From an uncultured Gammaproteobacteria bacterium (lineage in GTDB: Bacteria; Pseudomonadota; Gammaproteobacteria; UBA9214), in contig CALOCX010000017.1 of assembly GCA_942491995.1 (NCBI GenBank), forward strand, positions 309,919 through 373,918: a stretch of 64,000 nt of DNA, read 5' to 3'. Of the stretch, positions 1-48,330 are shown piece after piece. Within the stretch, counting starts at the first letter, position 1; every line of letters begins with the position of its first letter. The notes beneath the pieces are model-generated. The model saw nothing but the letters and a program-made list of their open reading frames with translations. It was not told the DNA's origin and did not search any database. Position numbers and translations under genes: made by a program.

Positions 1-4
1 TCAA

Positions 5-859
5 TCAGCTTGACCGGGGCCTTTCTTTTTCAGCCACTATCTGCTGGACCAGGTGCCAGTCATTCTCGCTGTCGACATCCACGGCAGCCTCGGCAAACGG
101 CAGGATGGCCACACCAATCTTCATCTCGAACCTCCCGGACAGGCGTGCAAGCGCTTCCTGCAACGAGAGACGTCCAAGCAGGTACTTGAACACCGGCCAC
201 CACCCCAGGATACCGACCACCCGCCAGGGTTGCTTGCGCTGGCGCTCCACCTTGCGCCAGAAGCCGGTAATTGCACGTGAGCGGGGTGTCATGAAGGCAA
301 ACAGGTTGCAGCTGCAATAGTCAGCGTCGCTGAAACGCAGCCGCGTCCTTTGCATGGTGGGATAGGCGGTTGCGACCAGCTCATGGGGGGCGAGTGCAAC
401 CATCAGGTCAACCCCGGCGGTGCGTGCCTGCCCGCAAAAATGATCGATAATCTGGCTGCTCAACAAGGCGTGATCGGCGGTTGTCAGCAATACCGGTTGT
501 GATTCCGGGATCTGCTCCATGGCGGCGGCGGCGCTGGCGCTCGGGCTCTCCCGACTGGCCATCCAGCCGTAGTCACCTGCGTCGACCCCGGACTTGAGCG
601 CTCCGGCCTGTTCGAGCAGCGGCCTGGGCGGGCCGCACAAAAACCGTGTTCCAACCTGCTGGCTCTGTTCCAGTGCAGTCAGTACCCGCAGCACCATGGG
701 CGTGCCGGCAACCGGGGCCAGTGCCTTGCAGGCAACACCGGCGGCCCTGCTGACAGGATCATCCGGGTTGCGGTCGGCCGCCATGACGATGGCGCTGAAG
801 GGCGTGACGGTCTCTGTGCTATGCATGCTTGCTGATTGTCGCCGCTGGCTACTGTTCAT
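5..859 (-). CDS. Nucleotidyltransferase (MobA/NTP_transf-like), resembling Caulobacter CpgD phosphoglycerate cytidylyltransferase
   Basis: N-terminal AIVMAADR...KALAPVAGTPMVLRV nucleotide-binding signature, LLTTADHALL, C-terminal VDVDSEND; co-oriented with and 25 bp downstream of bCerS. Start may be a few codons further in. Confidence 0.75.
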   Translation of the reverse strand: MNSSQRRQSASMHSTETVTPFSAIVMAADRNPDDPVSRAAGVACKALAPVAGTPMVLRVLTALEQSQQVGTRFLCGPPRPLLEQAGALKSGVDAGDYGWMASRESPSASAAAAMEQIPESQPVLLTTADHALLSSQIIDHFCGQARTAGVDLMVALAPHELVATAYPTMQRTRLRFSDADYCSCNLFAFMTPRSRAITGFWRKVERQRKQPWRVVGILGWWPVFKYLLGRLSLQEALARLSGRFEMKIGVAILPFAEAAVDVDSENDWHLVQQIVAEKERPRSS

Positions 860-884
860 GATTCAGGCCAACGCGGCTGGATGA

Positions 885-2039
885 TCAGAGTTCTTTTTGA
901 TAGATCCGGTAGCGCTTGTAGGGATCAGCGCCAAGTGATTCCAGAATATGCCGCATGTTGCGGTTGTTCTCAAGGATCCATGACATCTCCACTTCGCGAA
1001 TGCCCTGCGATGTGACCGGTAAGCGTATAGCCTCTATCAATGTATAGGCCAGCGCCATGCCGAGCGTGCTGTTGTGGTATTCCTGACGCACGCCCATCAG
1101 GGTGACGCGGGCTGTTTTAAGCTTGTGTCGCTTCAGGCGCCACAACAGCTTAATCCATCCCAGCGGCAGCAAGCGCCCGTCGAGGTCCCGGGCAGCCTCA
1201 TTCAGGTTGGGCAGTGCCACAATCATGGCTGCGGGTTTACCATCGACCGAGGCGATCTGGATGAAATCCTCATCCACCAGACGGGCCAGGTTACGCCCCA
1301 GCTCATCGAACTCTTCATGGGTAAAGGGTACGAATCCCCAGTTGTTTGCCCAGGCGTCATTGAACAGCTCACGTAAAACAGCCAGTTCCTCATGCAGGTG
1401 CTTGCGCCTCAAGGGCGAGACGGTTATCCGTGTGGAACTTTTTGAAATCAGTTTCCGCATCGCCCCGGGTACAACGAAATCGACAGACAGATGATAGGCC
1501 AGCAGATCCATGGCCTTGTGGTATCCAAGAGCCTCCAGGCTGCCGGCATAGTAAGTTCGGGCATGTCCCATCATGAAACAGGGCGGTGTATCAAAACCCT
1601 CCACCAGCAAGCCGCATTCATCATTAATCGAGAGATTGAAGGGGCCCTGCACCCGTTTCATCCCCTGTTCCCTGAGCCAGTTGCAGGCCGTATCAAGCAA
1701 CAACCGAAAGGTGGCGGGGTCATCATCCGCCTCGATAAAACCGAACAAGCCGGTTGCATCCTGATACCTTTCCAGGCGCAACCCGTCGACCTGGGCGCTG
1801 ATGCGACCGACCGGTTTGCCCTCTCGAAAGGCGACCCAGGCCTGCCAGCTGGCGTGCCTGAAATAGGGGTTTTTAGCGGACAGGTGTTGTTTACGCTCCA
1901 TCAACAGCGGCGGAATCCAGCAGGGATCGTCGTCATAGATGGACCATGGCACTCGAATGAAGCGTTGCAGGTCCTGCCGATTACTGACCGGAAGAATACT
2001 CAGATCACCGGGACGATCATGCTTTGCTGGGGAGGTCAT
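885..2039 (-). CDS. bcerS: Bacterial ceramide synthase (GNAT-fold N-acyltransferase)
   Basis: Motifs KPVGRISAQVD, GPFNLSINDECGLLVEGFDTPP, EMSWILENN; next to spt/acp/cerR. Start moved from the ORF-track 2276 to in-frame ATG 2039 (MTSPAKHD) to avoid overlap with the HIT gene. Confidence 0.8.
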   Translation of the reverse strand: MTSPAKHDRPGDLSILPVSNRQDLQRFIRVPWSIYDDDPCWIPPLLMERKQHLSAKNPYFRHASWQAWVAFREGKPVGRISAQVDGLRLERYQDATGLFGFIEADDDPATFRLLLDTACNWLREQGMKRVQGPFNLSINDECGLLVEGFDTPPCFMMGHARTYYAGSLEALGYHKAMDLLAYHLSVDFVVPGAMRKLISKSSTRITVSPLRRKHLHEELAVLRELFNDAWANNWGFVPFTHEEFDELGRNLARLVDEDFIQIASVDGKPAAMIVALPNLNEAARDLDGRLLPLGWIKLLWRLKRHKLKTARVTLMGVRQEYHNSTLGMALAYTLIEAIRLPVTSQGIREVEMSWILENNRNMRHILESLGADPYKRYRIYQKEL

Positions 2040-2216
2040 TCTCTGGGGCTCCGTGTCTGGCCTTACAGCGCCTGCCTGGCGGGGTCTGTTGCTGTGTTGT
2101 GCATGATACAAAATTTGTCTGCAATAAACAGACGCACGGATAATGCTGATTGCCGCGATGCCCGTGGCATGATTGAATAGCGCAAACCGGTGTTGATGAA
2201 ACAGGGAGCAATCGGC

Positions 2217-2645
2217 ATGAACGCAACCATGCAAAAATTCGGCGCGCCGGATACGCTCGTCAGTGATTATAATCACTGGGTGGTCTTGCTGCGCCCCGGG
2301 CAGGTAACGCTTGGATCCCTGGTATTGATATGTAAAGAACCCGCCACCGCGTTCTCCATGATCAGTGGCGCTGCCTTTGCCGAATTACAGTCGGTCACGC
2401 ATCACATTGAAGGCGTGCTTGGCCGGATGTTCAATTATGACAGGATCAACTACCTGATGCTGATGATGGTCGACCCGGATGTGCATTTTCACGTCATTCC
2501 GCGTTATGAAACCCGGCGAAACTTCTCCGCGCAGGTATTCACGGACCCTGGCTGGCCCGGCCCTCCCGACCTGACCAAACTCAACGCCACCAATACAGAA
2601 CAGAACCACAGGATCCTCGCTGCACTGAAGGCGGACTGGCCCTGA
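2217..2645 (+). CDS. HIT-family nucleotide hydrolase
   Basis: DPDVHFHVIPRY (HIT-like motif, first His replaced by Asp); AGGGAG RBS upstream of ATG 2217. Confidence 0.8.
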   Translation: MNATMQKFGAPDTLVSDYNHWVVLLRPGQVTLGSLVLICKEPATAFSMISGAAFAELQSVTHHIEGVLGRMFNYDRINYLMLMMVDPDVHFHVIPRYETRRNFSAQVFTDPGWPGPPDLTKLNATNTEQNHRILAALKADWP

Positions 2646-3234
2646 TAGCCGTCCGGCAAACCACTGCAAGCCCTGTGCTGATCGCCACGGATAAAAACTG
2701 GTGATGCGGGTATCAGACAGGCAGTAAAAATCAGCTGATAATGATGAAACTGACCAAATCTGAATGGCATACGATGACCAGTTAATGGCGCGAAATGGCG
2801 CGAAAGCTCTATCCCTCTAGCATAAGATGTAAGCGTGACCTGATTAGATGTTCGAGTTCGATAGCTGCTCGGAGGTGAACAGATTCAACGTTTCTCAGAT
2901 AGCTGAAGTTCGGTAGTCATCAGGAAATTTGCAGTATAACCGAAACCACCTGTTGGAAACCGGACATGCCATCATGGTTACCAGGTATAACTGTCGCTAG
3001 CAGGTTGCGATTTGAACGAAAATCTTGGAGAATGCATAAGTATTTGCCTATGTTGTGATTTTGAGATTGATTTCTTTTCGGGTCATAGACTTGTGATGGA
3101 TACCTTTACAGGGAGATGAATCTCATGTCTTCAAGATTATGGATTTCCGGGCCGGGTGCATTGTAGCGATGTTCACTACTGCCCTGCAGATGATTGAGGC
3201 TGTAATCATCTGCTAATTTAACAGGAGATTACTC

Positions 3235-5016
3235 TTGCGTTTGGAAGCAACAAAAACTGGTAACAACCTGCCGTTGAGGGCTGCGGATTTTCCGAATCTT
3301 GCAGCGGCCCTTGATTATGCAGCGTTGGGACGAACCGGTAGTAATTTCTACACCAGTCGCGGCGAACTTTACGCGGTACTGACCTATGCGGAACTGCGGG
3401 ATCAGGCACAGGCTCTGGCACGGCGTCTGCGTGGTCTGGGAACCGAACGCGGTGCACGCATGGTGATTATTGCGGACACCCATCCCGATTTTCTGCGCTT
3501 TTTCTTTGCCTGTCAGTACGCCGGCCTGGTTCCGGTACCGCTACCGATTCCCCACAACCCGGGCAGTCACAAGGCGTATGTCGCGCAGATACGGGCGATG
3601 ACGCAAGGCTGCCAGGCATCGCTGGCAATGGCGCCGGCAGATTATTCAGATCTGCTTGTGGATGCGAGCGCCGGGCTGGGGCTAATGCTGGTCGGCACAC
3701 CGCAAGACTATGACGCACTGCCTGAGCAGGCCGGCGAATTGCAGCCAATGCAGGCTGATGAACTGGCTTACCTGCAGTACACCTCGGGCAGCACCCGTTT
3801 TCCACGCGGTGTAATGATTACCCAGCGTGCAGTACTGAACAACCTGGCGGGGATCATAACCGAGGGAATGGACATGAGGACGACGGACCGTTGTGTCTCC
3901 TGGCTGCCCTTTTATCACGATATGGGTCTGGTGGGCCTGGTGCTTGCACCGGTGGCCTCGCAATTGTCGGTGGACTATCTTGGCACGCGTGAGTTTGCAA
4001 TGCGCCCCCGCCAGTGGCTGTCACTGATGTCACGCCACAAGGCGACCATATCGTTCAGCCCGCCTTTTGGTTATGAACTGTGTAACCGGCGACTGCGTGA
4101 AGGCGAGGCTGAAAAATTTGACCTGAGTGCCTGGCGTGTAGCAGGTGTGGGTGCGGAGACGATCCGGCCACAGGTTCTGTATGACTTTGCCGAGGCACTG
4201 GCTCCGAGTGGATTCAACCGCAACGCATTTCTTGCCTGTTACGGGATGGCGGAATGTTCACTGGCGGTGAGTTTTGCGCCGCTGGGTCGCGGACTGTCGG
4301 TAGACCGGGTGGATGCGGATCACCTGGCACTGCTCGATCATGCGCGCCCCGCAGAGAACGCTGTCGAGGAGCGTCTGAGTGAGTTCGTGAACTGTGGTGT
4401 GCCGCTGTCGTCGTTTCAAGTAGAGGTAAGGAGCGACACCGGCAAGGTCCTCCCGGAACGCCATATCGGAGTCATTCACGTGCGCGCACCGAGTGTCATG
4501 TCCGGTTACTTTAACGAGCCGGGAATCACTGCCAGAGTCCTCTCGCCGGATGGCTGGCTGGACACAGGCGACATTGGTTACCGGGTGGGCGACAGCATCA
4601 TGATCACGGGTCGCAGCAAGGATCTCATCATCATCAATGGCCGTAACATATGGCCGCAGGATCTGGAGCAGCTTGCGGAACAACAGCCGGATGTGCGTCC
4701 GGGAGACGCCCTGGCATTTGCGGTACCGGGTCCGGATGGCGCTGACGTCGCGGTGATGGTGGTGCAGTACCGCGACCGTGACAGTAACAAGCGAGCGGAG
4801 CTGATCAGGCAGCTGCAGGGACTGATCCATGCAGCGGTGGGTGTCGACTGCCATATTGAACTGGCGCCGCTGCACACACTGCCGCGCACATCGTCGGGCA
4901 AGCTGTCCCGCTCCAAGGCGCGGCAGAACTACATCGATGCGCACCCGCTGAACAAGATTGCTGTTCATGATGCGAGGGAAGCGACAGCCGTCCTGTCACA
5001 GAAACAGGCCGGCTGA
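3235..5016 (+). CDS. Fatty acyl-AMP ligase / acyl-ACP synthetase of the ceramide pathway
   Basis: YLQYTSGSTRFPRG AMP-binding loop, SWLPFYHDMGL, CYGMAEC, TGDIG, LPRTSSGK; TTG start with AGGAG RBS. Confidence 0.9.
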   Translation: MRLEATKTGNNLPLRAADFPNLAAALDYAALGRTGSNFYTSRGELYAVLTYAELRDQAQALARRLRGLGTERGARMVIIADTHPDFLRFFFACQYAGLVPVPLPIPHNPGSHKAYVAQIRAMTQGCQASLAMAPADYSDLLVDASAGLGLMLVGTPQDYDALPEQAGELQPMQADELAYLQYTSGSTRFPRGVMITQRAVLNNLAGIITEGMDMRTTDRCVSWLPFYHDMGLVGLVLAPVASQLSVDYLGTREFAMRPRQWLSLMSRHKATISFSPPFGYELCNRRLREGEAEKFDLSAWRVAGVGAETIRPQVLYDFAEALAPSGFNRNAFLACYGMAECSLAVSFAPLGRGLSVDRVDADHLALLDHARPAENAVEERLSEFVNCGVPLSSFQVEVRSDTGKVLPERHIGVIHVRAPSVMSGYFNEPGITARVLSPDGWLDTGDIGYRVGDSIMITGRSKDLIIINGRNIWPQDLEQLAEQQPDVRPGDALAFAVPGPDGADVAVMVVQYRDRDSNKRAELIRQLQGLIHAAVGVDCHIELAPLHTLPRTSSGKLSRSKARQNYIDAHPLNKIAVHDAREATAVLSQKQAG

Positions 5017-5042
5017 CAACCCGCAGACGCTGCAGGTTCTCC

Positions 5043-5972
5043 ATGTCACGAACCATTGCCGTAACCGGCGGCACCGGCTTCATCGGTGGTATGCTGATCC
5101 ATCACCTGGTGAACGCCGGGTACCATGTAAGAGCACTGACTCGTGACCGTTCCGCGCATAAACTCCCGAAGTTAGCTGGACTGGAAGCCGTTAGCGGTTC
5201 GCTCCAGGATAGTGAATCCCTGCGTCATCTGCTGCAGGATGCCAGCGCGGTAGTGCACTGTGCAGGCGCCGTTCGTGGCGTGACTGCCGCCGATTTCAAT
5301 GCCGTCAATGTCGATGGCCTGATGCAGCTGGTACGTGCGGCGCTCTCGCTCTCATCCAGACCCAGATTCCTGTCGCTCTCGTCGCTGGCGGCGCGTGCAC
5401 CACAACTCTCCCATTACGCCTCCAGCAAGCTCCGGGGGGAGCAGGCACTCGCCAGTATGGCAGCAGACATGGAATGGGTGGCGTTACGCCCTCCCGCCGT
5501 TTACGGACCCGGCGACAAGGAAATGCTGCCGCTCTTTCAGTGGATGGGACGTGGCATTGCACCGGTACTGGGCGCAGCGCATGCACGGGTATCATTACTG
5601 TATGTCGAAGACCTGTGTGCAGCAGTGCTCAGGTGGCTGGATGCAGGACAGTGCGAGAGCGGAATTTACGAACTCAATGATACCCAGTCCGGTGGTTATA
5701 GCTGGGATGAAATCATCGCGAATGTCTCGGCGCTGCGTGCCAGGCGCATCTTCAGACTGACCCTGCCGGCAACGCTGCTGCGCTCGCTTGCAGGCGTGAA
5801 TGTGACCGCTGCACGGCTGATCGGTTATGCTCCCATGCTGACACCGGGGAAGGTGCGTGAGCTGCGGCATCCCGACTGGGTAGCGGATAATACGGCATTG
5901 ACCGCCGCCATCGGTTGGCAGCCGGAAATTTCGCTGCAAGAGGGGCTGCGGCGAACCATGGGCTGGGGGTGA
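5043..5972 (+). CDS. cerR: NAD-dependent epimerase/dehydratase-fold reductase, ceramide reductase CerR-like
   Basis: VTGGTGFIG Rossmann motif, YASSK catalytic YxxxK, RPPAVYGPGD; lies between the acyl ligase and ACP as in the Caulobacter ceramide operon. Confidence 0.75.
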   Translation: MSRTIAVTGGTGFIGGMLIHHLVNAGYHVRALTRDRSAHKLPKLAGLEAVSGSLQDSESLRHLLQDASAVVHCAGAVRGVTAADFNAVNVDGLMQLVRAALSLSSRPRFLSLSSLAARAPQLSHYASSKLRGEQALASMAADMEWVALRPPAVYGPGDKEMLPLFQWMGRGIAPVLGAAHARVSLLYVEDLCAAVLRWLDAGQCESGIYELNDTQSGGYSWDEIIANVSALRARRIFRLTLPATLLRSLAGVNVTAARLIGYAPMLTPGKVRELRHPDWVADNTALTAAIGWQPEISLQEGLRRTMGWG

Positions 5973-6092
5973 ACTCGGCGTACAGCCTGTGACCGGTCTC
6001 GTTGGCAATGTTTCATTGCGTATCAGGCTGATGCCCGATAACGTCGATACCGGGCATCGACCAGCCGAACCGAATACGAGCATGGAGACTGT

Positions 6093-6347
6093 ATGAAGAT
6101 GCAGAGCAAAGAGGATATTCTTGATCAGCTGTACGAACTGGTTCAACCGTTCACCAAGGAACCGATTGAACTCGGTGCAGAGACCAGCCTCGTCAACGAG
6201 ATCGGTCTGGATTCAGTGAAGGTCATGGAGTTGATGACGCAGATCGAGGATCATTTCGATATCTCTATACCCCTGAATATCCTTTCCAGGGTGGACACCC
6301 TTGGAGATTTTGCAGAACAATTGCAACCATTGCTGCCAGACAGATGA
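6093..6347 (+). CDS. Acyl carrier protein dedicated to sphingolipid synthesis
   Basis: 84 aa acidic protein with GLDSVKVMEL phosphopantetheine Ser motif and EDHFDISIP; 3 bp upstream of spt. Confidence 0.92.
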   Translation: MKMQSKEDILDQLYELVQPFTKEPIELGAETSLVNEIGLDSVKVMELMTQIEDHFDISIPLNILSRVDTLGDFAEQLQPLLPDR

Positions 6348-6350
6348 TTC

Positions 6351-7553
6351 ATGACAAGCCTGTTCGATAAATTTCTGCCCCTTGAGAAAACCCGTACCGA
6401 GCTGGTCGCAGGCAGTGGTGTGGATCCCTTTCATGTCGTGGTAGAACGTGTGGTGTCGGCCACTGAAGCGATGATCAATGGACGCAAGGTGATCATGGCC
6501 GGCACTAACAACTATCTTGGACTCACCTTCGATCCCGAATGCATCGCAGCCGCCTGCACGGCAATCAGTGAGGAGGGTACAGGCACCACTGGCTCGCGCA
6601 TGGCAAATGGCAGCTACGCCGCTCACGTGGCACTCGAGAATGAACTGGCGGCCTTCTTCAATTGCCCCGCTGCCATTGTCTTTTCAACCGGTTACATCGC
6701 GAATCTGGCAGTTCTTTCGACACTGGCGGGTCCCGAGGATGTGATCCTGCTGGATGCCGACTGCCATGCCAGTATCTACGACGGCACCCGCCTTGGCAGC
6801 GCCCAGGTGATCCGCTTCCAGCACAACAACCCGGCAGACCTGGAAAAGCGTCTGCAGCGACTTGGTGACCGCGCCGGGAACACCCTGGTGGTGGTGGAAG
6901 GAATCTACAGCATGCTCGGTGACCGGGCGCCGTTGCGTGAGATTGCAGACGTCAAGAACCGCTTTGGCGCCTCCCTGCTGATAGATGAGGCCCATTCGCT
7001 GGGCGTTCTGGGCGAACGTGGCAGGGGGCTGGCGGAAGCCCTCGATGTCGAGGCCGAGGTGGATTTCATCACCGGCACCTTCAGTAAAAGCCTCGGGTCT
7101 ATTGGTGGCTTCTGTGTCAGCCGCTTGCCCGAGCTGGAATATGTACGCTATGCCATGCGTCCCTATATCTTCACCGCATCCTCTTCACCGTCCCTGATCG
7201 CCTCGACCCGCAAGGCACTCGAGATCCTCTGCCGTGGCAGCGCACTGCGGAAAAAACTCTGGGACAACGCAACACAGCTGTATCGGGGTCTCGCGGCCAT
7301 GGGATTTGAACTTGGCCCTGAAGTCAGCCCGGTGATCGCGGTGCGACTGCCTGCAAGCGTGGGTGAGACGACCGCACTATGGAATGAGTTACTGTCACAG
7401 GGCATCTATGTCAATCTGGTGCTCCCGCCTGCCACCCCGGGCGGTAAACCCCTGCTACGCTGCAGTCTCAGTGCAGCCCATAGCCCGGTGCAGATAAAAG
7501 CGATTCTGGACGCCTTTGCGCTGATCAGGGAAAAGTTGCAGCCTCACACCTGA
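6351..7553 (+). CDS. spt: Serine palmitoyltransferase (alpha-oxoamine synthase family)
   Basis: GTNNYLGL, GTTGSRMANG, DADCHASIYDG, EGIYSMLGD, DEAHSLG, GTFSKS (PLP Lys), YIFTAS: closer to Sphingomonas-type SPT than to BioF/Kbl; adjacent ACP. Confidence 0.88.
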   Translation: MTSLFDKFLPLEKTRTELVAGSGVDPFHVVVERVVSATEAMINGRKVIMAGTNNYLGLTFDPECIAAACTAISEEGTGTTGSRMANGSYAAHVALENELAAFFNCPAAIVFSTGYIANLAVLSTLAGPEDVILLDADCHASIYDGTRLGSAQVIRFQHNNPADLEKRLQRLGDRAGNTLVVVEGIYSMLGDRAPLREIADVKNRFGASLLIDEAHSLGVLGERGRGLAEALDVEAEVDFITGTFSKSLGSIGGFCVSRLPELEYVRYAMRPYIFTASSSPSLIASTRKALEILCRGSALRKKLWDNATQLYRGLAAMGFELGPEVSPVIAVRLPASVGETTALWNELLSQGIYVNLVLPPATPGGKPLLRCSLSAAHSPVQIKAILDAFALIREKLQPHT

Positions 7554-7619
7554 GCGCAGCCGGATAGCCTGAATCACTGGTTAACCTGCCCGCCTCCCTG
7601 CATATACGAAAGTACTGCC

Positions 7620-9353
7620 ATGCATCTATTGAAGACCTTTGCCCGCGCCTACCCGTTGCAGAGTGCCATCATGCTGGTTGCACTGCTGGTTGCCGGCCTG
7701 ATAGAGGGAATCAGCCTGACTGCCCTGTTGCCACTGTTGAACAAGGTGCTGGCCATACCCGATTCGACCGGGGCGGATGCAACAGCGCCAGAGCCTGACT
7801 CCAGCTCCGGCGTCGGCGATGCACTGCTCAGTGGTATCGAAGCCATTGGTTTAACACCCAGTGTCGAGCTGCTGCTGGTGGTCATCGTACTGGGCTCGAT
7901 CATCAAGGGCGGCCTGGTGCTGCTGGCGAAGAAAAAGGTTGGCTACATCGTTGCACAGGTTGCCACTGACCTGCGTCTGTCGATGTTGCGTGCCATGCTG
8001 GCCTCTCGCTGGGAATACTTTCTGCATCGACAGCTTGGACAGTTAACCAACTCCATGTCGATCGAGGCGGTCAGGGCGGCCAGCGCCTATCTGCATGGCG
8101 CGACGCTTATCTCACAGCTTATCCAGGCCTTTGTATACATCATTATCGCCACCATGCTGATGTGGCAGGCCGCCCTGTTTTCCATTCTGATGGGCACGCT
8201 TATCTATGTCGCACTGAACCGCCTGGTGAAGATGTCACGCAAGGCCGGCAAGCGCCAGACGACCTTTACCAAGCAGATGATCGCGCGTCTCGCCGACACC
8301 CTGCTGTCGGTCAAGCCGCTGAAGTCGATGGGACGGGAAGGCCTGGTAGATACCGTGCTGGTATCGGAGACGAAAAATATAAACCGGGCGCTGCGCCGCG
8401 AGGTGGTGAGCACAGAGTTTCTGGCGGCCGGACAGGAGATACTGTTCGCGCTGGTGCTGGTGATCGGTATCTATGTCACGCTGGTAAAGTGGGAACTACC
8501 TGTCGCGACGGTGATGATGCTGGGTTTTCTGCTCTCCAGGATATTGAAGAGGACCGGCCAGGTGCAACGCAGTTACCAGAAGATGGCTGTCAGCGAGTCT
8601 GCCTACTGGTCGATCCAGAAGACCATCAGCAAGGCCGAACAGGCACGCGAGGACCTTGGGGGCGATCGTGCACCAACCCTCGAACAGGGTATCGAGTTGC
8701 AGGATGTCAGTTTCTCCTACAAGGATAAAAAAATTCTTAAGGGGATAAATATCAGCATCCCTGCCGGTTCGTTTACCGCCATCATTGGACCTTCAGGATC
8801 GGGCAAGACCACCACCCTCGACCTGATCATCGGATTGCTGCAACCGGACAGTGGCACGCTGCTGGTCGATGCTATTCCGCTGAGCGAGCTCGACATGCAC
8901 CGCTGGCGGCGCACCATCGGTTATGTCCCGCAGGAAACCGTCCTGCTGCACGATTCAGTACTCAACAATGTGGCGCTGGGTGACACCGAAATCAGTGAAG
9001 CCGATGTCATTTCAGCCCTCCGGGAAGCGGGTGCCTGGGACTTCGTGGAGAAACTGCCGGAGGGCATCCATGACCACGTGGGTGAACGCGGCGGCAAACT
9101 GTCCGGTGGCCAGCGGCAGCGTATCATGATTGCACGTGCCCTGGTGCACCGTCCGCAGTTACTGATTATGGATGAGGCGACCTCGGCGCTCGATCCGCAG
9201 AGTGAAAGGGCCATTTGCGAGACACTGCGGAAGTTGCAGGGTGCGCATACGATCCTGGCGATCTCGCACCAACCCGCCCTGCTGGACGCCGCCGAGCGTG
9301 CCTACCGCTTGCAGGAAGGACGAGCGCTGCTGGTAAAGGATGATGCCGGCTAG
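7620..9353 (+). CDS. Fused ABC exporter (TMD + NBD), MsbA-like lipid/glycolipid flippase candidate
   Basis: Hydrophobic N-terminal helices; Walker A GPSGSGKT, Q-loop VPQE, signature LSGGQRQR, Walker B IMDEATSALD. Confidence 0.9.
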   Translation: MHLLKTFARAYPLQSAIMLVALLVAGLIEGISLTALLPLLNKVLAIPDSTGADATAPEPDSSSGVGDALLSGIEAIGLTPSVELLLVVIVLGSIIKGGLVLLAKKKVGYIVAQVATDLRLSMLRAMLASRWEYFLHRQLGQLTNSMSIEAVRAASAYLHGATLISQLIQAFVYIIIATMLMWQAALFSILMGTLIYVALNRLVKMSRKAGKRQTTFTKQMIARLADTLLSVKPLKSMGREGLVDTVLVSETKNINRALRREVVSTEFLAAGQEILFALVLVIGIYVTLVKWELPVATVMMLGFLLSRILKRTGQVQRSYQKMAVSESAYWSIQKTISKAEQAREDLGGDRAPTLEQGIELQDVSFSYKDKKILKGINISIPAGSFTAIIGPSGSGKTTTLDLIIGLLQPDSGTLLVDAIPLSELDMHRWRRTIGYVPQETVLLHDSVLNNVALGDTEISEADVISALREAGAWDFVEKLPEGIHDHVGERGGKLSGGQRQRIMIARALVHRPQLLIMDEATSALDPQSERAICETLRKLQGAHTILAISHQPALLDAAERAYRLQEGRALLVKDDAG

Positions 9354-9488
9354 CAGGCGAGCCTCTTCCTGTTCCCGTCACGTTCGGTTTTCTGGGAGCA
9401 CACTTTTCGACACCGCCGCCACCTGCTAGACTGCCCCCTCCTTCCCATGCAGCCATTGCCAGCAACTCTCCTGGCCGGGAACACTCCA

Positions 9489-10649
9489 GTGCGAATCGGA
9501 TTTCTTTTCAATCACTTTTTCCCCCACCAGGTACCGCACGCAGCGCCCTATGCGTACGAACTTTCGCGCCGCAACCCTGACTTCGAAGTCATTATCGCGT
9601 GTTCGTCGAGAGCCGAGATGGAACTGGCGAAGCGAATTGGCGCGCTCTACCCCGGTCACCGCTGTACGTTCAGGCACATTCGTCCGTCCTGGGCCTACCG
9701 CATGATCGATCCCCTGATCTCGCCGTATACTTTCACACGCAAGAAGATGGTACTGAAGAATAACCTGGCGTTCTTCCGCAGCCTGGATGCGCTGGTGGCG
9801 CCGGAGCGCCACTGCATGAAATTGAGAACGCTGTACAAGCTCGAGGGAGTGCGGATGATACACGCGCGCCACGGTGCCGGAGACCGCCAGGGCGGCTTCG
9901 ACGAGCGCTCCGGCGCATTCGATCTCACGCTGCTACCCGGGCAGAAATACATCGACCGCCTGCAGGAGATCGACGCCCTGCGCCCGGATGCCTATGCGGC
10001 TGTCGGCTGGCCCAAGTTCGAGGTCGTTCGCGGCCTCAACCCCGAACCCGTGCGCTTCTTCGACAACGACAATCCGGTTGTCGTCTACAACCCGCATTTC
10101 GACCAGCGCGTTTCGTCCTGGGAGAAGATGGGCCTGCAGGTGCTGGACTTCTTTGTAGACAACCCGAACTACAACCTGATCTTCGCGCCGCACGTGGTGC
10201 TGTTCAAACGACATGTCCGGCACAAGGGGTATCTGCCGGACAAGTACCGCAAGATCGCCAACATTCTGATCGACACCGGCAGCGCCGCCTCGACCGACAT
10301 GAGCTACATCCTGAATTCCGATATCTACCTGGGGGACGTCAGCAGCCAGGTCTACGAATTCCTGCTCGAGCCGCGGCCGGTTATCCACCTGAACGCACAT
10401 CACGTTGACTGGCAGGGCGACCCCTACTACCTGCATTTCACCCTGGGTCAGGTGGTCGACGATGTCGAACAGCAGCTGGGCCCCGCGCTTCAGCGGGCAT
10501 TCGACACCCACGCGCAGTACCTGGATGAGCAGCGACGTGTGTTTGCCTACACCTATTACAATGAAACCGACAGCACCGCGGCCCAGCGCGGCGCCGACGC
10601 CATTGCACGGTTTCTATCCAAACCCGCAGCGACAGATACCGCGCAGTAG
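9489..10649 (+). CDS. GT-B-fold protein, CDP-glycerol glycerophosphotransferase (TagF/TagB)-like
   Basis: VVYNPHF, IFAPH and SDIYLGDVSSQVYEFLLEPRPVIHL resemble the Glyphos_transf C-terminal motifs; GTG 9489 (MRIGFLFNH) preferred over ATG 9447. Confidence 0.55.
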   Translation: MRIGFLFNHFFPHQVPHAAPYAYELSRRNPDFEVIIACSSRAEMELAKRIGALYPGHRCTFRHIRPSWAYRMIDPLISPYTFTRKKMVLKNNLAFFRSLDALVAPERHCMKLRTLYKLEGVRMIHARHGAGDRQGGFDERSGAFDLTLLPGQKYIDRLQEIDALRPDAYAAVGWPKFEVVRGLNPEPVRFFDNDNPVVVYNPHFDQRVSSWEKMGLQVLDFFVDNPNYNLIFAPHVVLFKRHVRHKGYLPDKYRKIANILIDTGSAASTDMSYILNSDIYLGDVSSQVYEFLLEPRPVIHLNAHHVDWQGDPYYLHFTLGQVVDDVEQQLGPALQRAFDTHAQYLDEQRRVFAYTYYNETDSTAAQRGADAIARFLSKPAATDTAQ

Positions 10650-10682
10650 AACGTTTGGGATAACGACAGCTCAATGAGTCCA

Positions 10683-10712
10683 GCCTTCAGGAAAGGCGGT
10701 TTTTTATTTTTC
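10683..10712 (+). terminator. Probable Rho-independent terminator between convergent genes
   Basis: GCCTT-caggA-AAGGC stem followed by GG and a T-rich run. Confidence 0.45.
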
Positions 10713-11627
10713 CTCTACTCCCCGGGCCACAACATCATCCAGCAGCCTGGTCAGAAAGTGTTGCGGTGAGAATTGGTAAAGTGTTTCAGCCGCAATCGGT
10801 TCAGGCGCTGTCTTCAAAAACTTGGCGATTTCGTCCGTAGTGGTTGCATCGGTCAGCACCAGTACGTTGTTTGCATTGTAGAGCGCGGTCTTCCTGACGG
10901 CTGCATTGGTTGTAATTATTTTTTTCCCGTAGAGGGCCGCCTCAATAGGTCTTAACGACAGTCCGTTCTGGCCGTCCTGTGTTACATCCAGCAGGCACTT
11001 CGAATTTGCAACCAGTGCCAGATACTCCTGGTATGAAATCAGCTTGATCCCGTCACTGCCGGTAATTCTCGTGTATACCCTGAAACCCGCGGCTGACAGC
11101 GAGACGCCTAGCTTGTCAACCATCGCTTTTCTGCCTTTGTTGCGCCCGACAAAAAGCAAATCGATGGCGGGGTTCGGGATAGCATTCAGGGGAAATTTTC
11201 TGACAAACTGGGAATACTGTTTTAGTGCGTAAGTCTTGCAGTCCGCTTCATCAAAAGACCAGATTGCAATACCTTTTTCTTTCAGGCCAGCGATACTGTT
11301 TCTCAGGTTTTCATTCCTGGCGACAATGTTTCTGCAAATAATGGCCGCCTGAAAATCAACCGGTATCTCATTTAATATACGCGTCAAGTTGACCTTGCCC
11401 TGAAAAAAGAAGCTGCTTCCCGGGTTCTTTTCGATCAATTTCAGGATCAACTTCTTCAGCTGGTAGTGTCTCGCCCTTTTGAACCATCTGGCCAGAATGT
11501 TGCCGTGATATCTGCTTTCTTTTAAATTTATGACGTTTATGGCTATACTGCCGAGCTGGCCGATATCAAGAAACTGTACATCGTAATCCGGCCAGAAACC
11601 GATTAAAAAAACTTTTTTCTGTGGCAT
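10704..11627 (-). CDS. Putative glycosyltransferase (GT-B, CgeB/Glyco_trans_1_2-like; LPS/polysaccharide biosynthesis)
   Basis: LLFVGRNKGR, LLDVTQDGQNGLSLRPIEAALYGKKIITTN; start moved to MPQKKVFLIG to avoid overlap with the divergent gene; low GC. Confidence 0.55.
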   Translation of the reverse strand: MPQKKVFLIGFWPDYDVQFLDIGQLGSIAINVINLKESRYHGNILARWFKRARHYQLKKLILKLIEKNPGSSFFFQGKVNLTRILNEIPVDFQAAIICRNIVARNENLRNSIAGLKEKGIAIWSFDEADCKTYALKQYSQFVRKFPLNAIPNPAIDLLFVGRNKGRKAMVDKLGVSLSAAGFRVYTRITGSDGIKLISYQEYLALVANSKCLLDVTQDGQNGLSLRPIEAALYGKKIITTNAAVRKTALYNANNVLVLTDATTTDEIAKFLKTAPEPIAAETLYQFSPQHFLTRLLDDVVARGVEEK

Positions 11628-11706
11628 CTTTGAACTGTTTAGTGTCTTCATCAATGTAGATGTCCCCTTAATCATGCATTCAGCATCCACTGTGCGAATC
11701 CAGTCT

Positions 11707-12486
11707 ATGAATACTGAAATACAAGAACCTGTCAGAATCTTTGTCGGAACATCGCCCAACGGAGAGGATGCCGAAGCGGAAATGGTACTGGAATACTCAT
11801 TACGCAAACACAGTTCCCGGCCAATCGATATTACCTGGATGAGACTCTCCAGAGACCCCCGGTCGATCTGGTATAGCGGCAAATATGGCAGGAGTGGCTG
11901 GCGCACACACAAATGGACCACACCCTTTACCGGCTTTCGCTGGGCTATTCCGGAAGCCTGCAACTTTCAGGGAAAAGCCATTTACATGGATGTTGATATG
12001 GTCAACTTACACGATATCAGCGAATTATATAGCCTCGCCTTTGCGCACGACAAAGCCATCATGGCTCGACCTGGTCTTAAATCTAATTACAGATTTTGCG
12101 TCATGCTGATGGACTGCGAGAAACTGAAAACCATTTTACCGCCGGCAAAAAAACTGCAACGACTTAAACAGGGTCATCGCGAAATCACCGATATGTTGCT
12201 CAAATCCGATTATATCCAGACACTCGATCCACGCTGGAATTGTCTTGATGGCGAAGACCTGGCGATTGATGAGATCTGGCACCTGCACTACACAAAAATG
12301 GCCTCTCAGCCGTGGAAGCCTGCATGGTATCCAGGCGTAACAGAAGAACATGCCCGGCCTGAAATTGCCGATCTCTGGTTTCAATATAAAGAGGAAGCCA
12401 TGGCCAACAGCTGGTGGCCTAAAAAACCCGACCCTCCATTCGGCGCAGTTAAAATCCATCTCCGCAAGGGCAGGAAAAAAGCCTGA
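11707..12486 (+). CDS. GT-A nucleotide-diphospho-sugar transferase (GT8-like)
   Basis: RIFVG, TPFTGFRWAIPE, AIYMDVDM (DxD), WNCLD, HLHYT; start at MNTEIQEP. Confidence 0.7.
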   Translation: MNTEIQEPVRIFVGTSPNGEDAEAEMVLEYSLRKHSSRPIDITWMRLSRDPRSIWYSGKYGRSGWRTHKWTTPFTGFRWAIPEACNFQGKAIYMDVDMVNLHDISELYSLAFAHDKAIMARPGLKSNYRFCVMLMDCEKLKTILPPAKKLQRLKQGHREITDMLLKSDYIQTLDPRWNCLDGEDLAIDEIWHLHYTKMASQPWKPAWYPGVTEEHARPEIADLWFQYKEEAMANSWWPKKPDPPFGAVKIHLRKGRKKA

Positions 12487-12514
12487 ACCCCAGGCAATTC
12501 CCCGGTCGTTATCT

Positions 12515-13759
12515 TTAGGGGCTTGATATACTCTGCAGTATGCATGACGCCAGAATATCATTGCCCCGCGGAGAATAATGGGTTGCATCAACATAGCTTC
12601 CCTGTACGCCAGCCCCGGAAATTGCACGGGAGCAATCTTGCATTATTAAAAGCCCTGCACTGATCGCTTCCCTGATTCTTGAATCAACGCCGTTGTAAAC
12701 GGCAAAATAATCCGACGTGTAAAAGTCCTCAAGTAAAAATTCCTGGTTGCTTTCCAGCAATCCTATTGGTTGGTAGATGAAGTGAACAGTAAAACCAAAG
12801 GCATCCCCCAGTTGCCGGACAAACGAAATATTTTCCTTGTAATAGTGAATAATCTCGTCGGCAAGTTTGTCGATTCTGTTCTTGTGCAGGGTTGCCCAGT
12901 TGTAATGGAAATCCATTAACTCAAGCCAGTCGTCCAGCCCATTCACATTTGCGCTCTTGCGAATAAAGACATCGTTAATGTCATTTTTCCTGTGCAGATA
13001 ACGGTAGATTAAATGTGACACGGGAAAGCTGTATGCCAGAGCGAGCAGCCTGTTCTCTTTAACAGGCACACCAAAAACGAGTGGCACCTGCCCTCTGTCA
13101 AGGATCAGGCCCTGCGCACGCGGGCTATCGTGAAGCTCGTAGGGAGACCGGGCAAATGTCGTCACTTCATTCAGGCCATCGATAAAAATAACAGATGCGG
13201 GTCGATATCCCTTGCGCAGCAGATAAACAAGCTTGTCGACCTCTCTTATGGAATCGTATGCCTGAATCCCGAAATTGATATATGTCTTCTCTTCGTCAAT
13301 GGCGTTTAAACGGGCGACTACCGTACTGTTATCAGGTACGCCATCACCGAAAGTCGTTGAACCACCAAACACAAAAGTCTGCGTGTGCTGTTGCGACAAG
13401 ATATTACGCACAAAGTTATCCGACCAGTCGGGCAAGTACCTTATCCCCTCCAATCCTACCGTGTAATGTGGTCGTGCCGCCCCTTCTGTGAAATGCAACA
13501 CCGTATGTGGCCGGATTCCAGGTGCATCGACATAAGCTTCCAGGAGACGCTCGTCATTTGTATTGAAGATCCTTTTTCTGATTGCGATTCCTTCACTGGA
13601 CTCCTCATCCAGGAAGAAACGCGTGTCTGTTAGTGATAGCGGATGACGGTCAAGGTAGAGTTGTGCGCCTGTGTTGATCGCGATAAACAACAACAGGGTA
13701 ATGGCGACTATCACGCACGTCGTCTTGAAGAAAGCCGTTATCCCTGGTGTTGTAATCAT
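12515..13759 (-). CDS. Membrane-anchored SGNH/GDSL hydrolase (esterase or O-acyltransferase)
   Basis: Blocks FGGSTTFG, INFGIQAY, FIDGLNE, DATHYSPRGN; N-terminal transmembrane helix. Confidence 0.8.
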   Translation of the reverse strand: MITTPGITAFFKTTCVIVAITLLLFIAINTGAQLYLDRHPLSLTDTRFFLDEESSEGIAIRKRIFNTNDERLLEAYVDAPGIRPHTVLHFTEGAARPHYTVGLEGIRYLPDWSDNFVRNILSQQHTQTFVFGGSTTFGDGVPDNSTVVARLNAIDEEKTYINFGIQAYDSIREVDKLVYLLRKGYRPASVIFIDGLNEVTTFARSPYELHDSPRAQGLILDRGQVPLVFGVPVKENRLLALAYSFPVSHLIYRYLHRKNDINDVFIRKSANVNGLDDWLELMDFHYNWATLHKNRIDKLADEIIHYYKENISFVRQLGDAFGFTVHFIYQPIGLLESNQEFLLEDFYTSDYFAVYNGVDSRIREAISAGLLIMQDCSRAISGAGVQGSYVDATHYSPRGNDILASCILQSISSP

Positions 13760-14979
13760 TGAATCGTTAACCCGGGACTGCAGATGCCGCCCAGCAGCAC
13801 GTCAAGATAACGCTCGACGGCATGGTCAACATCAAACTCGCGCGCCCGTGTCCGCAAGGCTTCGCGATCAATTGTCGTGTCCAGCGTCGCGACAATCGCA
13901 TCCGCCAGTGCCGCATCATCGCCCACCGGCACCAGGCGCCCGTAGCGGCCTCCGGCCAGGATCTCGTCCGGCCCGCTGGGGCAGTCGGTGCTGACCACCG
14001 GGCAGCCGCACGCCATGGCCTCGACAAGCACCCCCGGCGAGCCCTCCCAGGCGGAAGACAGCACGAACAACGACGCCCGCGACATCCATGCGAACGGGTT
14101 GTCGACGAAGCCGTGCAGCTCGACATCCGCCTCAATCCCCAACTCGCGCAGTAGCTGTTCGAGAATGCGCCGTTGTCCGCCTTCCCCGAGAATCACGAGA
14201 CGCACCGGCCGGCGCGCACGCACGCGGGCAAAGGCACGCAGCAGCGTCGCGAAATCCTTTGCGGGCGCCAGCCGGCCGGCCGCAAGAAGCAGCGGCAGTG
14301 CACCCGCTGACAGCCAGGGGTGATCGAGCGGTGCCGCGGCCGCACTGTCGATTTCGGGGGTATAGGTCGGGTTGGTGACCGCGCACACCTGCTTGCGAGA
14401 CAGCGCGGTATGCTCGACGATATCATCCGCGATACCCTGCGAGACCGCGATCGCGGCATCGGCGCGGCCGTAGACGCGGCGCGCAAACTTCAGGCGATTC
14501 GGACGCGGCCGCTTGCTGTCGCCAAGGTGGGAGCCGGTGAGATGGTTGCTGACACGCAGCACCACGCGAACCGGTGCACGTGAAAGCCGCGCTGCAATCA
14601 CAGCAGTCAAATGCACGTGGTTGGCGGCCGACAGCAACACGTCCGGACGCTCGCGCCACAAGTAGCGCGCCAGCGCAAAACTGCTGGCCTTGATGCGGCG
14701 TCTGCGCTTCCGTCCCGCCAGGCGAATCAGCGCGGAGTCCAGCACCACCAGCCGCACCCCCTCCCGTAGCCCGCCGGCGAGTGGCCCTTCGGCATCGACG
14801 ACCACGAGATCGACGCGATGACCGCGTTTTGCGAAACCACCCGCCAGGGTCAGGGTGCGGCGTGTCGCGCCACCGCCCGATGGCCCGTAGATGTAGATCG
14901 CAATGTGCCGTTGGGCATCGTTCACGCCGCTCAGGGATTCATCACTACTGGTTGCCGTATGCGGCTTCACCGGGATCAT
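13756..14979 (-). CDS. GT4-family glycosyltransferase
   Basis: GGGATRRTLTLA, AAGRLAPAKDF, FVLSSAWEGSPGVLVEAMACGCPVVSTDC; ATGA overlap with the SGNH gene. Confidence 0.9.
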   Translation of the reverse strand: MIPVKPHTATSSDESLSGVNDAQRHIAIYIYGPSGGGATRRTLTLAGGFAKRGHRVDLVVVDAEGPLAGGLREGVRLVVLDSALIRLAGRKRRRRIKASSFALARYLWRERPDVLLSAANHVHLTAVIAARLSRAPVRVVLRVSNHLTGSHLGDSKRPRPNRLKFARRVYGRADAAIAVSQGIADDIVEHTALSRKQVCAVTNPTYTPEIDSAAAAPLDHPWLSAGALPLLLAAGRLAPAKDFATLLRAFARVRARRPVRLVILGEGGQRRILEQLLRELGIEADVELHGFVDNPFAWMSRASLFVLSSAWEGSPGVLVEAMACGCPVVSTDCPSGPDEILAGGRYGRLVPVGDDAALADAIVATLDTTIDREALRTRAREFDVDHAVERYLDVLLGGICSPGLTIQ

Positions 14980-14987
14980 GAACAGCG

Positions 14988-17062: not shown

Positions 17063-17105
17063 GCTCTTCCCCTCTCGCGGCCGAATGCTTTGGCAGCACA
17101 CGGCG

Positions 17106-48122: not shown

Positions 48123-48330
48123 CGTGGATAAGCTGTGGATAATTTTCAGGGCTAAACTTATCCCTACTTATCCACAGTTTGCCAACATGACATCAGACCG
48201 CCAGGCGATCACTTATCATTGATGCAGGATATTGAATATTAAAACGTTTATTAGGTTATACACAGTAATCGGGGCTGCTTAATAAACACAATAACCAAAG
48301 TTATTAACTTAAAAACATTATTTATTAATT
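48123..48330. other. Probable replication origin oriC
   Basis: DnaA boxes at 48123-31 (1 mismatch), 48134-42 (perfect), 48158-66 (2 mismatches), 48168-76 (perfect) and 48256-64 (TTATACACA), followed by an AT-rich tract at about 48278-48330. Confidence 0.8.

Follow-up and report, generated by a model that had tools for sequence, protein, structure and literature searches.

The window, the whole 64-kb stretch of DNA that was analysed, carries all five ceramide genes at 885-7553 with intact reading frames. Four are co-oriented on the forward strand, in the order aasR-type ligase (3235-5016), cerR-type reductase (5043-5972), ACP (6093-6347) and spt (6351-7553), and the bCerS-type gene diverges from them on the reverse strand. 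A preliminary description of this DNA had read the region as a run of ligase, CerR-like reductase, ACP and Spt with a divergent bCerS-like GNAT; profile searches, PDB searches and comparison with E. coli uphold both the identities and the order. The gammaproteobacterial host and the separate transcription unit for bCerS, on the strand opposite to the spt operon, were confirmed as well.

The 400-residue product of 6351-7553 is assigned as the serine palmitoyltransferase, Spt. It scores 616.9 bits with NCBIfam model NF047599 (cut-off 500). The same assignment had been proposed earlier and was set against the BioF, Kbl and HemA models, none of which was passed (322 bits against a cut-off of 426, 307 against 460 and 222 against 338, respectively); the nearest solved structures are also Spt, the best being 2x8u (5.5e-126) with Kbl (4e-70) and BioF (3e-52) far behind. 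Compared with the S. paucimobilis enzyme, the catalytic residues His159, Asp231, His234 and Arg390 and the PLP-binding Lys265 are all kept, as H139, D212, H215, R370 and K246, respectively. The equivalent of S. paucimobilis Arg378 is Leu358, and leucine is also found in all 34 related loci and in the Spt of the E. coli locus. The E. coli B enzyme has been assayed; it is active and makes 3-oxo-sphinganine (PMC9386255).

The bCerS reading frame is open over 885-2276, and alignment with 17 homologues places its start at the ATG at 2036, giving an N-acyltransferase of the YghO type, the putative bacterial ceramide synthase, with 383 residues (885-2036, reverse strand). Its GNAT match is weak (Pfam PF00583, 28.3 bits). 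The match to E. coli YghO (52% identity over 373 aa, E 7e-145) is unique in both directions, and dN/dS against a relative with 82% identity is 0.12. YghO is listed as the counterpart of Caulobacter CC_1154 (PMC9386255 Fig 9), and in published tables YghO, Avin_44290 and FOB45_16305 are paired with CC_1154, with identities of 45-47% (PMC9386255, PMC11324152). These tables, taken together with the comparison with E. coli, are the basis for the proposed orthology to CC_1154 and CC_1164.

The first gene of the forward run (3235-5016) encodes a fatty acyl-AMP ligase of the AasR type, an acyl-ACP synthetase for the dedicated ACP. It follows a 590-bp AT-rich leader, starts at a TTG codon 8 nt after an AGGAG ribosome-binding site, reaches 788 bits with NF006624 (cut-off 600) and shares 46% identity over 562 aa with the ligase of the E. 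coli cluster; AasR of BL21 has been shown to acylate AcpR (PMC9386255). The product of 5043-5972 is a CerR-type NAD(P)H-dependent reductase, an extended, NDUFA9-like SDR with the GxxGxxG and YxxxK motifs (GGTGFIGG and YASSK). It matches Pfam Epimerase (94 bits) together with NmrA and 3Beta_HSD domains, and is 47% identical over 303 aa to the epimerase-family gene of the E. coli cluster. Its top PDB match is an unnamed NAD-dependent epimerase/dehydratase (9g83), below which stand mostly NDUFA9 subunits of complex I; CerR is described as homologous to NDUFA9 (PMC11087976). The 84-residue ACP encoded at 6093-6347 (Pfam PP-binding, 47.9 bits) has its attachment serine in LDSV and falls under every housekeeping-ACP cut-off in NCBIfam. 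Its gene ends 3 bp before spt, and clusters of this kind are described as having, as a rule, the gene for the dedicated ACP directly before spt within a single operon (PMC9386255).

Extent of the locus and the adjoining exporter

The boundaries first given, 885-7553, enclose the five-gene core, but the locus is larger and runs off the left edge and rightwards into an ABC exporter. These positions cover the right-hand portion of a cluster about 20 kb long, which crosses the left edge of the window. The part beyond the edge is seen in contig L087, which is 98-99% identical in DNA to window positions 1-11095 and was treated as the same species. It encodes two nucleotidyltransferases, an NTP transferase among them, LptF and LptG (both above their NCBIfam cut-offs), a Metallophos protein, a CDP-OH_P_transf protein and a Tam41-like protein.

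Just downstream of bCerS and on the same strand lies a gene for a MobA-like nucleotidyltransferase (5-859, reverse; Pfam PF12804, 48.3 bits), the counterpart of CC_1153. In Caulobacter, CC_1153 is needed for the conversion of ceramide phosphoglycerate (CPG) to CPG2. The window protein is 100% identical to that of L087, and a gene of this kind comes next after bCerS in 59 of the 80 other loci among the matches listed; CC_1153 itself is described as MobA/CobY-like (PMC11324152 S1 Text). Between bCerS and aasR, a HIT-family gene (2217-2645, forward), the counterpart of CC_1157, scores 21.3 bits with Pfam PF01230, just below the cut-off of 21.5. Its reading frame opens at GTG 2190; the ATG at 2217 agrees with a 142-residue homologue in L003, a locus with 82% bCerS identity. 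A HIT gene accompanies bCerS in 17 of 80 loci among the matches listed. In four 98%-identical contigs it has lost its 5' two-thirds, and it is probably dispensable; CC_1157 is likewise regarded as probably unrelated to the pathway (PMC11324152).

On the other side, 66 bp after spt and on the same strand, is a gene for an ABC half-transporter of the ABCB/PglK type (7620-9353; Pfam ABC_membrane and ABC_tran). It belongs to a subfamily separate from the lipid A flippase MsbA, whose models it fails (TIGR02203, 244 bits against 602; NF008381, 189 against 867); assignment to the HepA family was also rejected (299 against 725). Among bacterial half-transporters of known structure, the closest PDB match is PglK, a flippase for lipid-linked oligosaccharides. 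The exporter gene adjoins spt repeatedly and across phyla: it is directly 3' of spt in L003, L087 and nine loci of other taxa, and in two further loci (L089 and L090) it stands between spt and lptA-like and lptB-like genes. The protein is a plausible candidate for the sphingolipid flippase and most likely moves lipid across the inner membrane. This neighbouring gene is a more useful lead than the ceramide core itself.

Next in the same orientation is a TagF-like gene (CDP-glycerol glycerophosphotransferase-like; 9447-10649, forward), which scores 21.7 bits with Pfam PF04464 (cut-off 22.1) and belongs to the same InterPro family as Caulobacter CC_1167. It is present in L087 but in 0 of 80 other loci among the matches listed, and its membership of the cluster is uncertain. 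A terminator-like hairpin with a T-run (10683-10697, forward), found by consensus scan only, possibly ends the co-oriented run 3235-10649; terminator-like sites in the region are in total no more numerous than in shuffled sequence, so the site is weak evidence.

Proposed pathway and competing explanations

We consider it likely, on gene content and conservation, that the locus gives this uncultured gammaproteobacterium a working version of the dihydroceramide pathway already known from proteobacteria ('Rhodobacteria-type'). Linkage of these five genes recurs in dozens of unrelated genomes, which discounts chance. All eight genes compared with the 82% relative have dN/dS of 0.11-0.20, and the cluster genes are intact in several contigs 98-99% identical to the window; purifying selection of this kind implies use under at least some conditions.

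From the gene identities, integrity, synteny and purifying selection observed here we infer the enzymatic steps, the product and the role in transport. AasR would activate a free fatty acid with ATP and load it on the dedicated carrier AcpR, and Spt would condense acyl-AcpR with L-serine to 3-ketosphinganine. The separately transcribed bCerS would then N-acylate this intermediate and CerR would reduce the 3-keto group to give dihydroceramide; N-acylation before reduction is the order favoured for Caulobacter. Ceramide is probably not the end product, as the left extension encodes homologues of CC_1153, CC_1152, CC_1158, CC_1159 and CC_1161. These head-group homologues and the second copies of LptF and LptG point to a phosphosphingolipid that is anionic and is exported to the outer membrane. 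The putative head-group genes of L087 include the Tam41-like and CDP-OH_P_transf genes, and tblastn found no DAGK-type ceramide kinase (DAGK_cat) in the 64-kb window or the 21 kb of L087; the head-group chemistry may therefore differ from that of Caulobacter.

The preliminary description had placed the cluster next to oriC and had seen in it a stable chromosomal resident. The cluster is near the origin but not adjacent to it. The window contains dnaA (46770-48122), dnaN, recF and gyrB; a cluster of DnaA boxes occupies 48123-48264 and cumulative GC skew is lowest at about 48-50 kb, which puts the origin about 40 kb from spt. The LPS heptose gene gmhB is present as described (54166-54717), and ceramide may be made alongside LPS.

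That the cluster is instead a recently transferred island appears unlikely. A scan of genomes for bCerS loci yielded at least 600 stretches, and bCerS-linked clusters occur in at least 80 species of several phyla. Among the matches listed, at 50-60% bCerS identity, relatives turn up in Gammaproteobacteria, Betaproteobacteria, Desulfobacterota, Nitrospirota, Geobacterales and Gemmatimonadota, and this scattered distribution would suit an island, as would the horizontal acquisition proposed for gammaproteobacterial clusters (PMC11324152). A 66% relative (L001) has his and murA-type neighbours, unlike the window, and a glycosyltransferase block of low GC (50-51%) adjoins the cluster at 10-14 kb. 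The cluster itself, however, has the GC content of the rest of the window (57-60%), and no tRNA gene lies within the window. Moreover, its left-hand neighbours (sulfotransferase, Asp/Arg hydroxylase and PAS-GGDEF-EAL genes) are common to L087 and L003, so the cluster took up this position no later than the split of those lineages.

Purifying selection also bears on a reading that we regard as distinctly improbable, in which the genes are intact but cryptic or conditionally silent, little or no sphingolipid is ordinarily made and the outer leaflet is built from LPS alone. The same cluster is found in the majority of complete E. coli genomes (spt of the window is matched in 4102 of 5426), and in the literature found on the E. 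coli cluster there is no report of native sphingolipids; the presence of the genes is thus no proof of production. Such clusters can decay, since spt in the E. coli locus L086 is annotated as a truncated pseudogene, and in sister strains decay of the HIT gene is under way. The long leader before aasR would allow regulation. Against silence stand the low dN/dS of all eight genes and their integrity in several nearly identical contigs.

It is very improbable that this alpha-oxoamine synthase takes a different amino acid or acyl donor and that the cluster yields a related, non-ceramide aminolipid (a 1-deoxy analogue, a sulfono analogue or a signal of the alpha-hydroxyketone type): cysteate acyltransferase (2e-62) and CqsA (3e-36) are weaker family matches in the PDB, the Arg378-equivalent contact to the serine carboxylate is leucine and a sulfotransferase adjoins the cluster in L087 and L003, but only the Spt model was passed (CqsA-type NF005526, 214 bits against a cut-off of 428), leucine also occupies this position in E. 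coli Spt, the E. coli B enzyme makes 3-oxo-sphinganine (PMC9386255), and the accompanying bCerS and CerR would be ceramide-specific partners.

Relation to known ceramide clusters

The novelty implied for a gammaproteobacterium does not hold, since published clusters of E. coli B/BL21, Azotobacter vinelandii and Pseudomonas luteola have the same layout. For E. coli BL21(DE3) the five-gene cluster has been depicted, with assays of its Spt, AcpR and AasR (PMC9386255); A. vinelandii and P. luteola are described as having contiguous ceramide and phosphosphingolipid clusters (PMC11324152).

The E. coli B/BL21(DE3) cluster yghO-aasR-epi-acpR-spt (ECD_02850-02854; PMC9386255), also from a gammaproteobacterium, has the same genes in the same order with a divergent N-acyltransferase. 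It was compared through the annotated locus of strain PAR (L086), which is collinear with the window and gives full-length best matches throughout (YghO 52, ligase 46, epimerase 47, ACP 39 and Spt 57% identity). Second copies of lptF and lptG are common to the E. coli cluster and the window lineage, where they lie in L087. The E. coli cluster differs in having genes for a MOP/Wzx-type 'polysaccharide biosynthesis' membrane protein, YtfJ and a dTMP-kinase-like protein; it has neither an ABC exporter 3' of spt nor genes of the CC_1152, CC_1153, CC_1159 and CC_1161 types, whereas the window lineage has both.

The clusters of P. luteola and A. vinelandii were compared by their published description. 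The P. luteola order, MobA-like, cerS, HIT, aasR, cerR, acpR and spt, is the layout of the window (PMC11324152). In both species the order spt, acpR, cerR, aasR, HIT, cerS and CC_1153-like (PMC11324152 Fig 7, S2 Table) continues with CC_1152-like, lptF/G-like and CC_1159-like genes onwards, as it does in the window and L087 taken together. The two clusters include a CC_1160-type ceramide kinase, of which neither L087 nor the window has a counterpart, and are reported without an orthologue of the phosphoesterase CC_1158, whereas L087 has a Metallophos gene. Orthologues of CC_1166-1168 are reported absent from P. luteola and A. vinelandii, and the paper makes no mention of an ABC exporter by spt (PMC11324152).

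Caulobacter crescentus CC_1152-CC_1168 (Olea-Ozuna 2021, 2024; Stankeviciute 2022) has the same five-gene core with cerS in a separate unit. The rule for Caulobacter and its relatives, aasR-cerR-acpR-spt together and cerS transcribed separately (PMC11324152), fits the window exactly. Accessory genes found in both Caulobacter and the window with L087 are those for HIT, MobA-like, NTP-transferase, LptF/G, Metallophos, CDP-alcohol transferase and Tam41-like proteins. What sets Caulobacter apart in the published description is CC_1166, a putative flippase of the MOP type, together with CC_1168, a copy of LptC, and the ceramide kinase CC_1160; among the called genes of the window and L087, none is MOP-type or LptC-like.

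The label 'Caulobacter-type' thus holds for gene set and order but not for sequence clade. Caulobacter is an alphaproteobacterium with an alpha-type Spt, whereas the window Spt scores 617 bits on the 'Beta' model and 465 on the 'Alpha' model, below its cut-off of 670. By profile score it goes with the beta/gamma-type Spt model, apart from the alphaproteobacterial one. No Caulobacter loci are among the matches listed from the genome scan (loci at 50-60% identity). Since gammaproteobacterial examples of this cluster are on record and E. coli commonly carries it, the cluster of the window is an ordinary new member of the known ceramide clusters.

Core genes and the identity of the serine palmitoyltransferase

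All the genes named in the preliminary description are present, as judged from an ORF map together with Pfam and NCBIfam scans. The plus-strand run opens with a fatty acyl-AMP ligase (aasR, 3235-5016; NF006624, 788 bits, cut-off 600), followed by an extended short-chain dehydrogenase (cerR, 5043-5972) and an 84-residue acyl carrier protein (acpR, 6093-6347), both placed by the same map and scans, and by an alpha-oxoamine synthase (spt, 6351-7553); successive genes are separated by 26, 120 and 3 bp. Divergent from this run, on the minus strand, lies a weakly GNAT-like bCerS gene (885-2036, 383 aa), whose start was set at the ATG at 2036 by alignment with 17 homologues. Directly to its left and on the same strand is a MobA-like nucleotidyltransferase gene (5-859). 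Promoter and terminator consensus scans did no better than on shuffled sequence, thus the operon boundaries are drawn from spacing and strand only. Neither Rfam families nor tRNA genes were found when the window was scanned for them. The 590-bp AT-rich spacer that precedes aasR (2646-3234), long for an intergenic region, contains no ORF of 60 aa or more, no Rfam match and no detected structured element; it may be a regulatory leader.

Between the two divergent units is a small HIT-family gene (from 2190 or 2217 to 2645), which is intact in the window (2190-2690 region) and in L003, an 82%-identical relative. Four contigs with 98%-identical flanks (L087, L088, L004 and L005) have lost the 5' two-thirds of the gene; the remnant (8410-8670 in L087) is clearly more diverged than its flanks and about 77 bp have been inserted downstream. 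Within the species, the HIT gene seems to be undergoing decay.

Assignment of 6351-7553 to Spt, as opposed to BioF or Kbl, had been singled out as a point on which the preliminary description could fall, and it is upheld by both family models and solved structures. The protein scores 616.9 bits against the serine palmitoyltransferase equivalog NF047599 (cut-off 500) and falls under the NCBIfam cut-offs for BioF (322 vs 426), Kbl (307 vs 460), HemA (222 vs 338) and the CqsA-type autoinducer synthase (214 vs 428). Sphingomonas Spt structures match at 1e-120 to 1e-126, compared with 4e-70 for Kbl and 3e-52 for BioF. Among the Spt models themselves the best score is with the 'Beta' form, the 'Alpha' model giving 465, under its cut-off of 670. 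Alignment shows that His159, Asp231, His234, Lys265 and Arg390 of S. paucimobilis Spt are all conserved. The equivalent of Arg378, a serine-carboxylate contact in that enzyme, is Leu358. This replacement might be thought to disqualify the enzyme, an objection ruled out by the rest of the clade: each of the 34 related loci has Leu, Ile, Phe or Val at this position, and the residue is hydrophobic also in the Spt of an annotated E. coli strain PAR locus (L086). Activity has been reported for the E. coli B enzyme (PMC9386255), so Leu358 marks the clade and is no sign of a defective enzyme.

The E. coli locus also provides the route to the other core genes. In strain PAR, yghO on the minus strand is followed on the plus strand by a fatty acyl-AMP ligase, an NAD-dependent epimerase, an ACP and spt, then by an additional lptG and lptF. 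Each of the five window proteins aligns over its full length with its counterpart in this locus (bCerS 52, ligase 46, reductase 47, ACP 39 and Spt 57% identity), each match being unique in both directions. The PAR spt is annotated as a C-terminally truncated pseudogene. The same cluster was drawn for E. coli BL21(DE3) (ECD_02850-02854) by Padilla-Gomez et al. 2022, who took yghO and the epimerase to be the counterparts of Caulobacter CC_1154 and CC_1164, respectively; the accompanying biochemistry established the loading of AcpR by E. coli AasR and the preference of Spt for acyl-AcpR (PMC9386255). The link from the window to the genetically characterised Caulobacter bCerS and CerR is, at the level of sequence, transitive through E. 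coli. Window CerR carries GGTGFIGG and YASSK motifs; its closest solved relative is 9g83, an unnamed NAD-dependent epimerase/dehydratase, below which come mostly NDUFA9 subunits of complex I, and CerR has been described as NDUFA9-like (PMC11087976).

Host, distribution and conservation

The gammaproteobacterial setting near the replication origin, with gmhB, is borne out: dnaA, dnaN, recF, gyrB, mnmG, yidC and gmhB are all in the window. The proteins of the window are found on an NCBI contig of 520 kb; an exact search with window Spt matched no gene record, and window CerR pointed to nothing beyond a 5-kb contig. Three perfect and two near-perfect DnaA boxes occupy the dnaA-dnaN spacer (48123-48264), a further perfect box sits upstream of dnaA at 46690, and the cumulative GC skew reaches its minimum at about 48-50 kb. 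The boxes and the turn in skew place the ceramide cluster about 40 kb from the origin; the clustering of boxes in the spacer, taken with the skew minimum, also suggests that the origin may be on the downstream side of dnaA, not the upstream one. Among GyrB relatives of 82% identity or more, no cultured or named genus appears. Nearly all those that bear a name are labelled 'MAG: Gammaproteobacteria bacterium', the exceptions being one 'Pseudomonadota bacterium' and one 'Halobacteria archaeon', the latter presumably mis-binned. The closest bCerS relatives are likewise all uncultured 'Gammaproteobacteria bacterium' MAGs. Pseudomonas luteola, whose gene order as tabulated by Olea-Ozuna et al. is identical to that of the window, is ruled out as the host by these GyrB and bCerS relatives.

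The implied view of the ceramide cluster as something unusual for a gammaproteobacterium does not hold: its gene set, order and spread are published and the cluster is common in E. coli. By blastn, the acp-spt DNA of the window matches a gene annotated 'spt: serine palmitoyltransferase' in 4102 of 5426 complete E. coli genomes. Among gammaproteobacteria, Olea-Ozuna et al. (PMC11324152) described contiguous clusters for A. vinelandii and P. luteola. Spt-like genes have been reported in MAGs of 38 bacterial phyla, which raises the number of phyla known to have them to 40 (Ding et al. 2024, PMC11334938). Scanning species-representative genomes with a bCerS alignment gave at least 600 stretches, the best 80 of which were analysed as loci. 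These include Gammaproteobacteria (Competibacteraceae, Sedimenticola, Thiogranum, Rhodanobacter, Salinisphaera and others) and, beyond them, Nitrosomonas, Nitrosospira, Desulfobacterota, Nitrospirota, Geobacter and Gemmatimonadota; the loci listed are 50-60% identical and none among them is alphaproteobacterial. Within 10 kb of bCerS in these best 80 of at least 600, aasR is found in 44, cerR in 39, acpR in 36 and spt in 34, mostly in the same divergent layout. The window cluster is a further case of a well-described kind, unsurprising where it was found; it is very ordinary and adds little as a gammaproteobacterial occurrence.

The copy is nonetheless well preserved. Compared with the 82%-identical L003, dN/dS is 0.11-0.20 for each of the eight genes that run from the MobA-like gene to the ABC exporter, and all of them except the HIT gene have full-length uninterrupted matches on contigs 98-99% identical. 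Low dN/dS and uninterrupted copies argue for function, the timing of expression lying outside their reach. The reading as a functional ceramide pathway is, overall, most probably right. Kept under selection in an uncultured, abundant lineage of gammaproteobacteria, the copy helps to tie environmental sphingolipids to their producers.

Extent of the cluster and its flanks

The core genes of the locus stand as described, but its extent (885-7553) does not: the 393-kb contig L087, which comes from the same species and is 98-99% identical to window positions 1-11095, carries the cluster leftward past the window edge. There it contains a second nucleotidyltransferase (CC_1152-like), copies of LptF and LptG (above NCBIfam cut-offs), a metallophosphoesterase (CC_1158-like), a CDP-alcohol phosphotransferase (CC_1159-like) and a Tam41-like protein (CC_1161-like). 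Caulobacter homologues of these genes convert ceramide to ceramide phosphoglycerates (PMC11324152). After the Tam41-like gene come genes for a sulfotransferase and then an Asp/Arg beta-hydroxylase, which L003 has as well. A DAGK-type ceramide kinase occurs in 39 of the 80 other loci (the best 80 of at least 600) and was found neither in the 21 kb of L087 (including 10893-19254) nor in the 64-kb window. With no ceramide kinase nearby and a sulfotransferase and lipid-type hydroxylase adjoining, the final lipid may differ from that of Caulobacter, and its head group may be other than ceramide phosphoglycerate.

On the right, the next co-oriented gene after the ABC gene resembles TagF (CDP-glycerol glycerophosphotransferase-like, 9447-10649; just under the Pfam cut-off), and a terminator-like hairpin lies at 10683-10697. 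The TagF-like product shares an InterPro family with Caulobacter CC_1167, an orthologue of which has been reported missing from gammaproteobacterial clusters (PMC11324152); a TagF-like gene is linked to bCerS in none of the 80 other loci (the best 80 of at least 600). Between the sphingolipid operon and uvrD (about 10700-17360) are glycosyltransferase genes (WaaS/CpsH family, GT8-like and GT4) and unassigned ORFs, with a GC content of 50-51% against about 57% elsewhere. L003 and L091, a relative's contig retrieved through the exporter, have NeuB/NeuC genes instead of this block, which is probably a variable surface-polysaccharide island.

An ABC exporter downstream of spt

The part of the locus worth an experiment is, rather than the ceramide cluster itself, the gene that follows spt by 66 bp on the same strand (7620-9353), encoding an ABCB-type half-transporter of 577 aa. 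It falls under the NCBIfam cut-offs for MsbA and HepA, and the nearest solved bacterial half-transporter in a PDB search is PglK, a lipid-linked-oligosaccharide flippase. The pairing recurs in several phyla. In nine bCerS-anchored loci (beta-, delta- or unclassified proteobacterial labels, Desulfosarcinaceae, Desulfobulbaceae and Geobacter), spt has a homologue of 47-55% identity no more than 250 bp downstream. The same holds for the 84%-identical copy in L003, a closer relative; four further bCerS-anchored loci have a homologue nearby. The reverse test consisted of three targeted look-ups anchored on the ABC gene, since conserved ABC motifs by themselves would bring up generic transporters. 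Two of the resulting relatives' contigs, L089 and L090, whose exporters are 72-75% identical to that of the window, have aasR-cerR-acpR-spt-ABC followed in one run by genes for an LptA-like protein (TIGR03002, 138 bits, cut-off 72), LptB (TIGR04406, 370 bits, cut-off 240) and a divergent bCerS homologue; in L091 the C-terminus of spt lies 67 bp upstream of the ABC gene. The added segment (L089 8944-11362, L090 4699-7267) comprises lptA-like, lptB, a 51-aa sigma-54-domain fragment and a GNAT gene 29% identical to window bCerS, and looks like a duplicated lptA-lptB-rpoN stretch recruited into the sphingolipid cluster.

To meet CerR in the periplasm, oxidised ceramide has to pass through the inner membrane, and as of 2024 no sphingolipid flippase or transporter had been identified (PMC11087976). 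The product of 7620-9353 is, from gene linkage only, the best candidate for this crossing. Wired into the spt operon, and joined in relatives by LptA/LptB copies, the exporter is a concrete and testable candidate for sphingolipid translocation.

We tentatively propose that it could be an inner-membrane flippase dedicated to the ceramide intermediate or to the completed sphingolipid. The exporter would play for sphingolipids the role that MsbA plays for lipid A, handing the lipid to the LptF/LptG copies of the cluster and, in relatives, also to LptA/LptB. Two loci have a MOP/Wzx-type gene in the slot after spt, resembling those of E. coli and Caulobacter (CC_1166), and among the loci compared the ABC and MOP genes never occur together. 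In such lineages a MOP/Wzx-type protein of the CC_1166/YghQ type, in the same gene position, would do the same job.
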